A stretch of DNA of 64,000 bases from a virus. Numbering within the stretch: the stretch's first letter is position 1; every line of letters starts with the position of its first letter. The stretch is from positions 1 to 64,000 of IMG/VR virus record IMGVR_UViG_3300035703_000042, one strand, 5' to 3'. Under the pieces are notes generated by a model that worked only from the letters and a program-made list of their open reading frames with translations, had not been told where the DNA came from and made no database searches. Made by a program: the position numbers and the translations under genes. This document shows, piece after piece, positions 31,967 to 35,128 of the stretch.

Positions 31967-32869
31967 ATGGCCGAACGAATACTACTCGATCGACTCGAGT
32001 TCTATATTACCAACGTCTGTAACCTTACCTGTAACGGTTGTAATCGTTACAACAATTACCATTTCAAGGGGTGGACGGCCTGGGACGAATGGGCCGAGGA
32101 TCTTGAGCGTTGGTCAAAGTACATCGACATCCGACATCCGGTGATCCTGGGCGGCGAACCCTTGATGAATCGTGATATCGTGAAATGGGTCAAAGGCTTG
32201 CGTCGACTATGGCCCGATCATTCAGGAGTGCAGATCCAAAGCAATGGTACCAGGATCGATCGTGTGCGTGGTTTGTACGATGTGCTGGATCCCAAAGAAG
32301 GCAACTGGATCGGTATCAGCATACACAACCCTGATGACAAAGAAGAGATTTTTTCGCGCATACGCAACTTCCTCACACATCCCATACGCGAGACTGCAGA
32401 TAAAAATCATCCCATTGGCAGCGATTTCCAGTTCTACGATGCCAATAACATGTATGTGCATGCTTGGATGAGTAACAAGTTTGTACAGAGCAATATCATC
32501 GAGCGTGATGATGGTACGTTTACAGTATACAATCACGACAACCCCGAACGCGCACATGAGATCTGTACTTTCCGCAGATTCAAGAACTATCACTGGATCA
32601 ACGGACGCATTTACAAGTGCGGACCTGCAGCTCTCATGCCCGAATTTGATCGCCAGCATCATTTTGACATATCCGAAGAGGATCGTGCTATCATGCACGG
32701 ATATCGAGGACTGAGTGTGGACGAGTTTGACGAGCGAGGGCACGACTTCCTTGCCCACATCGATGACATGATTCCGCAATGCAAATTTTGCCCCCAGGAC
32801 TACGATTACAAACCCATTACATTTTCAGACCGCAAAAAGAGTTGGCGGATCAGCACAGAAATATTATAG
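31967..32869 (+). CDS. radical SAM protein
   Basis: CNLTCNGC, GGEP, SNG, C-terminal YKC and CKFC. Confidence 0.88.
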   Translation: MAERILLDRLEFYITNVCNLTCNGCNRYNNYHFKGWTAWDEWAEDLERWSKYIDIRHPVILGGEPLMNRDIVKWVKGLRRLWPDHSGVQIQSNGTRIDRVRGLYDVLDPKEGNWIGISIHNPDDKEEIFSRIRNFLTHPIRETADKNHPIGSDFQFYDANNMYVHAWMSNKFVQSNIIERDDGTFTVYNHDNPERAHEICTFRRFKNYHWINGRIYKCGPAALMPEFDRQHHFDISEEDRAIMHGYRGLSVDEFDERGHDFLAHIDDMIPQCKFCPQDYDYKPITFSDRKKSWRISTEIL

Positions 32870-32908: not shown

Positions 32909-33511
32909 ATGAAAAACAAGTATGGAATCAAAAAACAGTGCCTACATTGCGGAGAAGAATTTATAACGAAACTTAGGCTAGTTGACTATTGTTCTCAGCC
33001 CTGTAAGAACCCTAACAACAGACCAGGTCATATTCCCTGGAACAAAGGTAAGACATTAACTCAAGAACAAAAAGCAAAACAAAATACAACAGGGTTAACA
33101 AAAGGTCGGGGATGGAACAAAGGACTCCCTAATGAACTTGCTCGAAAAAGATTTTTAGAGAATAATCCAAATAAAGACGGACGAGTTAACAATCTAAGAC
33201 CTAAAAATTATATAGATGATGAGTTTTCTGCTTATAAGAGAGAATGTCGTAAAGCCACTTATAGAAGTGTTTATCAGATGAAGAAGGAAGGACTGGTGCC
33301 TGAGAATACTGGTAAAAGAAAAAACCAGTACCAGTTAGATCACATAATTCCGTTTAGACAAGGTTATGAACTTGGGATAGATCCCCGACTCATTGGGAGC
33401 AGACAAAATCTGCGTTACATCTTAGGCGAAGAAAATAGATCGAAGTGGGATCGTTTTCAGCCCGACGATGTTTTAAAATCAGTTATAGGAGACAATCATG
33501 GCTTACAGTAA
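32909..33511 (+). mobile_element. free-standing HNH homing endonuclease with NUMOD-like repeats
   Basis: CxxC..CxxxC, (P/G)WNKG x2, LDHIIP...NL...EN.SK; AT-rich; 3' end overlaps iscU start. Confidence 0.8.
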
Positions 33512-33894
33512 GGCCGTTATTGATCATTATGAGAACCCGCGTAATGTGGGTTCGTTTGACAAAGGAGATACGCACGTTGGGACCGGTATGGTTGGCGCCC
33601 CAGCGTGCGGATGACGGAGACGTCATGAAACTACAGATCAAGGTCAATGAAGATGGCATCATCGAAGACGCGAGGTTTAAAACTTACGGCTGCGGATCAG
33701 CCATTGCCTCCAGCAGTCTTGTCACCGAGTGGGTCAAAGGCAAGACACTCGACGAGGCAGCAACTATCAAGAACACAGCGATCGCCCAAGAGCTCGCTCT
33801 TCCGCCTGTTAAAATCCATTGCTCAATACTGGCTGAAGATGCCATCAAAGCAGCCATAGAAGACTACAGGAACAAACATGGCCACGCCAATTGA
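33498..33894 (+). CDS. iscU: Fe-S scaffold IscU, interrupted by a 7-nt insert (join 33498..33611, 33619..33894)
   Basis: MAYSKAVIDHYENPRNVG..VGAPACG-stop, then +1 frame DVMKLQIKV..GCGSAIASSS..LPPVKIHCS; joined product 129 aa; GGAG SD. Confidence 0.9.
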
Positions 33895-34093
33895 AACAGT
33901 GATATTGTGGGCATTGATCATCAGCGGTGAACCGCGTGTGCAAGAAGTCTATCGCACCGAAGAGCCGTGTGTGCGTGCTGCGAGATCGCATCGTGCTCAA
34001 GGAACTTTCGCTTACTGCATGCCCACTAATCAGTTCACGGTTGAAACTAGCACGCATCAACTTCGCAGCCTGGGAGTATTGTTGAATGATTGA
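33878..34093 (+). CDS. small hypothetical protein
   Basis: Overlaps both iscU and iscA; AGGA SD. Confidence 0.55.
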   Translation: MATPIETVILWALIISGEPRVQEVYRTEEPCVRAARSHRAQGTFAYCMPTNQFTVETSTHQLRSLGVLLND

Positions 34094-34415
34094 GATCACC
34101 GACACAGCCGCAGAGCGAGTACAGCAGGCCATCCAACGACGTGGTCGAGGCGTAGGTATCAAGATTGGCGTAAGAACCACCGGGTGTTCGGGACTGGCCT
34201 ATACCTTGGAATTTGTTGATACGGCACCAGACACTCAACAAGGCATAGAACACTACGACATCAAAGGTGTTGGCGTTTTTGTCAACACCGAGCACTGTGT
34301 GTATTTGCAAGGCATGACCATCGACTATCAGCGCCGGGGTCTCAACGAAGGCTTCGAATTCATTAACCCCAACGAAAAAGACCGCTGCGGTTGCGGCGAA
34401 AGTTTCCGAGTTTGA
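34086..34415 (+). CDS. iscA: Fe-S cluster carrier IscA (HesB family)
   Basis: GCSGLAY, F.NPN, CGCGESF. Confidence 0.95.
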   Translation: MIEITDTAAERVQQAIQRRGRGVGIKIGVRTTGCSGLAYTLEFVDTAPDTQQGIEHYDIKGVGVFVNTEHCVYLQGMTIDYQRRGLNEGFEFINPNEKDRCGCGESFRV

Positions 34416-35128
34416 TAAATCAACGTTTCGATTATGCCCCGCTGTCACGCGAAACTGTGAACGGCCGTAGGCTTTATGCCGCCCCCAATGGTGATCGTCT
34501 TCCGTCAGTGACTACCATCCTTGATGCTACCAAGCCCGCAGAAAAGCGAGCAGCATTGCAGGCCTGGCGTGATCGAGTGGGTCATGAACAAGCACAGCAG
34601 ATCACCACCGAAGCAGCAAATCGTGGCACCCGGATGCACACCTATCTCGAGCACTATGTGCGCAGCGGCGAGCTCAAGGAGCGTGGTAGCAATCCATTTT
34701 CCTGGCCCAGTCATGCCATGGCAGCCACAGTGATCGATCAAGGTCTGGGCCAGGTTGATGAATTCTGGGGAGTGGAAGTTCCCTTGTATTTCCCCGGCAT
34801 CTATGCCGGTACCACCGACTGTGTGGGCATACATCAAGGTCAGGCTTCCATTATGGACTTCAAGCAAACCAACCGACCCAAGCGAGAAGAGTGGATCGAT
34901 GACTACAAACTACAGCTCTGCGCCTATGCTGAAGCACACAACGAAGTGTACGGAACATGCATCCAAAAAGGTGTGGTCTTGATGTGTGTAAAGCCCACAG
35001 TCGATCCAGAAACACAGACTGTGACTACACCGCCGCAGTATCAGGAATTCGTGATCGAGGGTCAAGAATTTGAACATTGGCGAGATCAATGGTGGCGTAG
35101 GGTCGAACAGTACTATCTAACCTGCTAA
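34412..35128 (+). CDS. PD-(D/E)xK exonuclease
   Basis: LPSVTTIL, RGT..H, AGTTD, DFKQ, QL.AYA. Confidence 0.88.
   Translation: MINQRFDYAPLSRETVNGRRLYAAPNGDRLPSVTTILDATKPAEKRAALQAWRDRVGHEQAQQITTEAANRGTRMHTYLEHYVRSGELKERGSNPFSWPSHAMAATVIDQGLGQVDEFWGVEVPLYFPGIYAGTTDCVGIHQGQASIMDFKQTNRPKREEWIDDYKLQLCAYAEAHNEVYGTCIQKGVVLMCVKPTVDPETQTVTTPPQYQEFVIEGQEFEHWRDQWWRRVEQYYLTC

Follow-up and report, generated by a model that had tools for sequence, protein, structure and literature searches.

How does a phage express an iron-sulfur scaffold protein when the most conserved motif of its gene is interrupted by a stop codon? The question is raised by a 64,000-nucleotide (nt) stretch of DNA from a freshwater giant phage (positions 1 to 64,000 of IMG/VR record IMGVR_UViG_3300035703_000042, hereafter the window), part of a 95-kb virus record estimated to be 27% complete. 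The scaffold gene iscU is interrupted there by 7 nt that begin with a stop codon, and positions 33606-33627 read TGC GGA TGA C GGA GAC GTC ATG. An earlier note, made from the letters alone, had described the split and proposed that peptidyl-tRNA-Gly hops from the glycine codon before the stop (Gly38, the take-off codon) to the glycine codon behind it (the landing codon), giving full-length IscU. The sequence and coordinates it gave are exact, and skipping the 7 nt does restore PACGDVMKL within a 129-amino-acid (aa) IscU that also carries GCGS and LPPVKIHC, with all ligand motifs present. This joined reading aligns gap-free to intact homologues and, as befits a NifU_N scaffold, both halves are recognised by that Pfam profile (Table 1). 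Over approximately 100 alleles the hop is the best-supported account of the locus, although two pillars of the original proposal, a hairpin around the stop and matched take-off and landing codons, fail across the family. From comparison of these sequences we consider it probable that the 7 nt are a homing-endonuclease immunity insert, decoded by a short hop of peptidyl-tRNA-Gly.

The insert is real and recurrent. Three other studies supply Logan contigs (X2, X3, X5) that span positions 33612-33618 without a gap, which together with inserts at the same codon in 161 loci rules out a sequencing or assembly artefact. Run X1, which may be the source sample of the window, also contains an uninterrupted iscU allele (...CCCGCATGTGGTGACGTGATGAAG...) that branches off at window position 33598, and donor-type and target-type alleles thus coexist in one community. 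Among the public runs listed as containing the sequence, none is an RNA data set. The 161 viral and metagenomic loci were found by pattern scans of viral and metagenome collections, one of which imposed no requirement between stop and ATG; all have Gly-stop-N(0-4)-Gly exactly at Gly38, and they comprise 100 distinct contexts, 24 insert classes and 38 junction haplotypes. They include six loci, besides the window's own, among the 80 closest viral loci. A scan of 185,579 prokaryotic species genomes returned three chance matches, none of them in iscU.

Every interrupted locus obeys one rule, namely GGN (Gly38), a stop, a spacer of 0-4 bases, a second GGN and then GAY GTN ATG. The stop (TAG in 13 classes, TGA in 9 and TAA in 2) follows Gly38 directly in all classes, as a stop follows the take-off codon of phage T4 gene 60, and the spacer is hypervariable. 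Counted as stop, spacer and second glycine codon, the inserts are 6, 7, 8, 9 or 10 nt long, giving all three frame relations between the halves. In a tree of the associated nuclease described below, the 7-nt class with GGA-TGA-C and the 8-nt class with GGA-TGA-CA are sisters. Given this sister pair and the 6-10-nt range, only a frame-independent mechanism fits, and the +1 frameshift that the earlier note had kept as an alternative is refuted by inserts of 6, 8, 9 and 10 nt at the same codon in all three frames. Interrupted alleles are not monophyletic in the iscU gene tree, where they require 12 parsimony changes; we read these as recombination and poor resolution of a 390-nt gene rather than as 12 origins.

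The bases behind the spacer evolve as codons. The 9 nt that follow it are always GGN GAY GTN, even in the scan that did not require them, and the within-class changes in these 9 nt, at least 15 in number, are all synonymous and fall at third positions (naive P 1.6e-9 if the bases were free). The Gly-Asp-Val codons ahead of Met41, including those of Asp39 and Val40, show synonymous changes only, and no consistent start codon precedes GGN GAY GTN in interrupted alleles. Such evolution is explained only by a ribosome that comes from the first half and resumes at Asp39, and a restart at Met41 fails to explain it. The main caveat on this signal is recombination with intact alleles; an identical patch of approximately 60 nt set in divergent flanks indicates that the nine post-spacer bases travel with the insert. 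Purifying selection acts on both iscU halves. The ratio of nonsynonymous to synonymous change (dN/dS) among alleles of a single insert class is 0.18 in the N part and 0.11 in the C part, the same as in intact alleles, and 121 of 121 complete joined reading frames are open without further stops or frameshifts. The argument against decay that had been drawn from the intactness of the two halves is borne out, and the insert is neither confined to one genome nor flanked by a neutrally evolving half.

The strongest structural signal is an RNA hairpin 5′ of the take-off codon. Its 3′ arm is formed by the Pro-Ala-Cys codons and its last base is the first G of the take-off codon. In the window it has a minimum free energy of -24 kcal/mol (z -3.2). 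Across the family, 10-11 of the 11 base pairs form in each of 61 unique interrupted alleles, compared with a mean of 6.2 in 68 intact alleles, and the 51 nt ending at Gly38 have a minimum free energy of -25.1 kcal/mol in interrupted and -13.7 kcal/mol in intact alleles (P 2e-21). Covariation is extensive among 41 distinct sequences: pair 9-39 occurs as CG (20), AU (16), UA (4) and GC (1), and pair 12-36 as UA (21), CG (12), GC (3), UG (3) and GU (2), with no sequence unpaired at either. Overall 96.5% of stem cells are paired, against 89.1% in shuffles, none of 500 of which reaches the observed value, and 32-43% in slid controls; RNAalifold independently returns the same 11-bp helix. Residue 27 alternates between His and Gln so that the third base of its codon can still pair with that of Ala36, indicating that RNA pairing has overridden the protein sequence, and the G-U pairs in the stem point to RNA rather than DNA. 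The upstream hairpin is specific to interrupted alleles and is kept by compensatory changes.

This is not the hairpin on which the original proposal leaned. The 6-bp stem with a GNRA tetraloop described around the stop exists in the window, but it folds no better than shuffles (z -0.35) and lacks a counterpart in GAT GTA variants and in most other insert classes. As a stimulator it is rejected on that z value and on its restriction to the sub-lineage of the window. No conserved take-off stem-loop around the stop, of the gene 60 type, was found among the classes; the hairpin that is conserved is located upstream of the take-off codon. Across the interrupted loci Gly-stop-N(0-4)-Gly at Gly38 is kept, and the pairing around the stop is not.

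The insert is linked to a free-standing nuclease gene that overlaps the iscU start. Its product has an N-terminal four-cysteine finger, WNKG/NUMOD3-like repeats and a D-H...N...N motif, and C11, C14, C28, C32, D144, H145, N167 and N176 are invariant in 18 homologues. Its probable assignment to the HNH type is based on this motif and on weak, consistent matches: 10 of the 18 members match Pfam HNH (best E 0.0014) and three match NUMOD3, and the top fold matches are HNH nucleases, also weak (4h9d, Z 4.3; 5h0o, Z 4.0; Foldseek E around 1). The window's own protein has no Pfam match at E <= 0.001, a profile search of PDB sequences gave nothing credible, and the structural searches gave no Foldseek match at E <= 0.001 and VIA-align Z scores of at most 4.3. 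Compared with L033, a syntenic locus whose iscU is intact, the window has the gene as a clean insertion of approximately 616 nt. It lies directly upstream in 42 of the 58 interrupted loci with enough flank and in none of 68 intact loci (Fisher 1.6e-20, uncorrected for ancestry), and this presence/absence polymorphism, tied to a disrupted target, is the behaviour of a homing endonuclease.

Six of the 42 upstream nuclease genes are remnants. Nuclease fragments stand beside a still-intact insert and hairpin in L005/L086, L089, L145, L166, L173 and L179, and look like stages of endonuclease decay. A further 16 loci retain the insert and intact halves without a window-type HNH gene upstream, two of them with a NUMOD3 open reading frame (ORF) in its place; downstream ORFs in insert-bearing loci that have no HNH gene include no recognisable endonuclease. 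At L118:3542-4261 and L158:4209-4790 (both minus strand) a different NUMOD3-motif ORF with weak PHROG homing-endonuclease matches occupies the place of the window-type nuclease. This suggests that one endonuclease has taken over the site of another, a process also described for the gene 60 element. Genomes G001 and G004 contain distant paralogues of the nuclease, and the long ORFs beside them show no obvious split. Insert classes track nuclease clades, and the sequence around the insert is mosaic. Locus L001 is 100% identical to L005 and L113 from -40 to +20, in flanks that are 63-73% identical, and patch identity is 0.84-0.98 in same-class pairs against 0.77-0.79 in intact pairs at equal flank divergence. 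A patch of approximately 60 nt around the insert thus moves between iscU backgrounds in the manner of a co-conversion tract. The cassette as a whole consists of the upstream HNH gene, iscU codons 26-37 reshaped into the hairpin, and a 6-10-nt stop insert after Gly38.

We infer the hop itself, its efficiency, the cleavage and the immunity from features that the alleles establish directly, namely their anatomy, conservation, covariation, nuclease-gene linkage and mosaic patch. By interrupting the most conserved iscU motif the insert would destroy the target of the endonuclease and render its carrier immune. The endonuclease would cut intact alleles of co-infecting phages, and repair would copy the patch, often with the nuclease gene, into the cut allele. 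During translation of an interrupted message, GGA of Gly38 would occupy the peptidyl (P) site with the slowly decoded stop in the aminoacyl (A) site, causing a pause. The inner stem-loop would already be outside the ribosome, and the outer stem may zip up as its 3′ arm emerges, pulling the mRNA forward. A refolding hairpin upstream of a shift site has been described as stimulating forward and opposing backward shifts, also in a 70S system (PMC6321510), and pairing of the exiting mRNA or a 5′ stem-loop has been proposed to propel gene 60 bypassing (10.1101/2024.12.09.627546). Peptidyl-tRNA-Gly would then release its codon and re-pair with the next GGN, 7 nt on in the window and 6-10 nt on in relatives, and decoding would resume at Asp39 to yield a normal 129-aa IscU. 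The junction peptide GDTHVGTGMVGAPACGDVMK is diagnostic of the predicted hop; the Thr-His in it occurs only in interrupted alleles, whose signature is (T/P/A/S)(H/Q)VGTG...APACGDVM(K/R).

Several observations weigh against decoding by a hop. The matched GGA codons of the window had been taken as a hallmark of bypassing, yet across the family the third bases of take-off and landing codons do not covary beyond chance: 22 of 29 class-landing combinations are readable by one tRNA-Gly, which equals the marginal expectation, and the remaining seven, about a quarter, cross GGY with GGR. Cases of GGT to GGA and of GGA to GGY require two-of-three pairing, whereas in accounts of the gene 60 family the take-off and landing codons always share a tRNA. 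A sequence resembling a Shine-Dalgarno (SD) element is enriched at a suitable distance before Met41 in interrupted alleles, chiefly in the 7-nt classes, and has the look of a restart site. In several classes a G ahead of the landing codon creates an out-of-frame GGG. Artificial hops over a stop codon are only approximately 1% efficient, and the hairpin would have to raise this figure for the hop to suffice. Finally, counts and P values throughout are uncorrected for shared ancestry and recombination. Given the stronger SD-like sequence and the missing covariation between take-off and landing codons, some termination with restart at Met41 probably occurs alongside the hop.

The alternative that survives best, though we think it unlikely, gives that restart the whole task. 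Translation would stop at TGA 33612 and begin again at ATG 33625, and a 38-aa peptide and an 89-aa protein would assemble into a scaffold without Asp39 and Val40, the hairpin merely biasing post-termination ribosomes forward. An in-frame ATG does lie 10 nt past the stop, and predicted anti-SD pairing before Met41 is stronger in interrupted than in intact alleles (-4.96 against -3.06 kcal/mol, P 3e-9) and stronger still in the window (Table 1). Restart is also frame-independent, is untroubled by the absent covariation of the glycine codons, and has reviewed precedents in genes split by homing endonucleases, namely nrdA by MobE and the topoisomerase by MobA. It leaves unexplained, however, the invariant first and second positions of GGN GAY GTN; within the interval between SD and ATG, the GT of Val40 shows no change against eight at its third base. 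In the 9-nt classes the SD pairing is no better than in intact alleles (-2.2 to -3.7 kcal/mol), and no clear role is left for the covarying 11-bp hairpin that abuts the take-off codon. The two-piece product would, moreover, lack Asp39, a conserved cluster ligand of IscU.

A second, quite improbable alternative retains forward movement and places it after termination. The 38-aa peptide would be released and the ribosome, carrying deacylated tRNA-Gly, would slide to the GGN and resume at Asp39, producing pieces of residues 1-38 and 39-129. Such a slide accounts for the conserved GGN GAY GTN and for frame independence, and the hairpin could serve as its driving force. Unscheduled restarts arise mainly when ribosome recycling fails, however, so their yield would be very low, and nothing in the data favours a slide over the hop.

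That the insert is a selfish scar, inactivating iscU and persisting by endonuclease drive in what has become a pseudogene, is more doubtful again and already largely refuted. The idea draws on the auxiliary nature of iscU and on the link between insert and homing endonuclease, but it does not accommodate two halves that evolve under the same constraint as intact alleles (dN/dS 0.11-0.18), the 121 open joined frames, the 16 loci that keep insert and intact halves without a window-type HNH gene upstream, or a hairpin maintained by compensatory change. Least credible of all is a recoding event specific to each class (a +1 shift in the 7- and 10-nt classes, a shift of -1 or +2 in the 8-nt classes and readthrough in the 6- and 9-nt classes) that adds two or three residues: a C follows the stop in 12 of 24 classes, as TGA-C in the window, and is a weak context for termination, but three mechanisms would be needed at one site, the frame switches between sister lineages, and the residues that would be added within the cluster-binding loop show no constraint (D, E, N, R, S, L, I, P, K).

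Reassignment of the stop or a suppressor tRNA was also considered and rejected. Four complete relatives with interrupted iscU, G001-G004 (behind loci L116, L084, L098 and L119), are jumbo phages of 329-525 kb, one with direct terminal repeats, and carry clusters of 12-53 tRNA genes that include Gly(GCC) and/or Gly(UCC). No suppressor anticodon is present among the tRNAs read in the loci fetched from them, which cover most, not all, of the 12-53 genes per relative, and suppression is unlikely. The 95-kb record, at 27% completeness, yielded no tRNA genes.

Table 1. Positions in the window of the interrupted iscU gene, its associated elements and its neighbours
Feature	Position	Strand	Remarks
iscU landmarks	ATG 33498; Cys37 TGC 33606-08; stop 33892-94	+	Read from the sequence
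iscU part 1, codons 1-38 (Met1-Gly38), with ligand Cys37	33498..33611	+	38-aa N part; NifU_N E 4e-10, profile 1-35
Conserved RNA hairpin 5′ of take-off	33571..33609	+	11-bp stem, 33571-33581 with 33599-33609; inner stem-loop
Take-off codon GGA (Gly38)	33609..33611	+	GGN before the stop in 161/161 interrupted loci
6-bp GNRA hairpin around the stop	33611..33626	+	Real in the sub-lineage of the window; outside the conserved element
Coding gap: stop TGA 33612-14 and spacer C 33615	33612..33615	+	Stop after Gly38 in 24/24 classes
Landing codon GGA	33616..33618	+	GGN in every locus; variation at third base only
Candidate restart: SD-like GGAG 33616-19 and Met41 ATG 33625-27	33616..33627	+	Anti-SD duplex -6.6 kcal/mol
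iscU part 2, Asp39-Asn129 and stop	33619..33894	+	Holds Asp39, Cys63, His105, Cys106; NifU_N E 1e-37, profile 35-125 (92-aa C part, codons from 33616)
Free-standing HNH-type (His-Me finger) homing endonuclease gene	32909..33511	+	200 aa; overlaps iscU start by 14 nt
Radical SAM gene	31967..32869	+	Upstream of the nuclease gene
71-aa ORF	33878..34093	+	Between iscU and iscA; no family match; 17-nt overlap with iscU end
iscA (IscA/HesB-like gene)	34086..34415	+	Pfam Fe-S_biosyn
PD-(D/E)XK nuclease-like ORF	34391..35128	+	Overlaps iscA end

The cassette sits in an iron-sulfur neighbourhood, in the order radical SAM gene, nuclease, iscU and iscA (Table 1). The small ORF between iscU and iscA is an insertion of approximately 200 nt relative to L033, with 37-45% identical counterparts in L003, L006 and L009, which include interrupted and intact loci.

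In the literature on iscU with bypassing or with homing endonucleases we found no published report of this element. Programmed bypassing is known from gene 60 with its homologues, and from a single lineage of yeast mitochondria. Ribosomes most likely hop in iscU from one glycine codon to the next, which would make the element a small-scale natural equivalent of the bypass in phage T4 gene 60. On balance we would also regard it as the first natural family of programmed short stop-hops, a portable module of approximately 50 nt that places an immunity insert without changing the protein. Such a module would comprise a refolding 5′ hairpin and two glycine codons separated by a stop and a spacer of 0-4 bases, would carry ribosomes over 6-10 nt in any frame while requiring re-pairing at only two of three bases, and would have been evolved by a homing endonuclease for insertion into an invariant active-site motif. 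The approximately 100 natural variants of this one minimal element differ in gap length, frame, stop, codon pairs and hairpin pairs, and so provide a ready-made mutational series on ribosome release and landing, which also bears on whether forward sliding can be powered by a hairpin that refolds where the mRNA leaves the ribosome. The cassette would be a second, independent case of a homing endonuclease travelling with a recoding signal, and the repeated pairing suggests a general route by which selfish elements enter invariant coding motifs. In practical terms, gene callers will label such iscU genes broken or split.

Among known systems, MobE in nrdA of phage Aeh1 is likewise a homing-endonuclease-linked interruption of a conserved gene that is described as still functional. 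There the nuclease gene lies between two separately translated pieces with added tails, whereas in iscU only some 4-7 untranslated bases interrupt the gene and the subsequent codons behave as translated. The mitochondrial byp elements of Magnusiomyces capitatus described by Lang, Nosek and colleagues are also short mobile inserts in conserved genes that are neutralised by bypassing. As in the iscU cassette, the A-site codon is slow when take-off occurs, and the match between take-off and landing is somewhat relaxed. The byp elements differ in being GC-cluster-like and 27-55 nt long, in residing at many sites per genome in a eukaryotic organelle, and in having no endonuclease partner in these accounts.

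Synthetic stop-hops, in which matched codons flank a stop, are another close system. They work in Escherichia coli (Weiss et al. 1987, in PMC5009743), and the review of Atkins et al. 2016 (PMC5009743) presents no natural stop-hop as known, with shorter counterparts of bypassing long presumed. The synthetic design uses 9 nt for one amino acid, and the L190 class (GGT TAG GGC) has exactly this form. The same anatomy, a codon, a stop and a second codon after which decoding would resume in any frame, is found in the window and in all insert classes, and frame independence with an A-site codon that is slow to decode would be common to both systems. The synthetic versions are artificial and lack a dedicated stimulator, whereas the iscU family has a hairpin and spacers of 0-4 nt.

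A further comparison is with gene 60 of phage T4, whose bypass is borne by the HNH element MobA (Huang 1988; Bonocora 2011; Manning and Atkins 2022, 10.1101/2022.08.31.505936). In the account of the mobA/gene 60 pair given in the last of these, carrying the bypass insert confers protection from the nuclease, and the bypass often persists after the nuclease gene has decayed or disappeared (10.1101/2022.08.31.505936). Gene 60 and the iscU cassette share a glycine take-off codon, an immediate stop and a glycine landing codon before the resume codon. In both, the insert occupies an invariant target-gene motif and is surrounded by a converted patch, an HNH-type gene is adjacent and decays or is lost as the insert stays, and an mRNA stem-loop 5′ of take-off is the proposed driver of forward movement. 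The differences are equally clear. The two share no sequence homology, a comparison made for the nuclease with PDB sequences and Pfam only, and the gap is 6-10 nt in the iscU cassette against 50 nt in gene 60. A conserved take-off stem-loop around the stop is missing from the iscU cassette, whose gap is also too short for an internal mini-SD, and one tRNA need not read both its take-off and its landing codon. Its 5′ hairpin covaries strongly and ends in the take-off codon, whereas the 5′ stem-loop of gene 60 is described as unconserved between clades. The target gene of the iscU cassette is not additionally split by the nuclease gene. The iscU cassette is thus not a member of the gene 60 family by homology; it would work alike through a different and simpler architecture.

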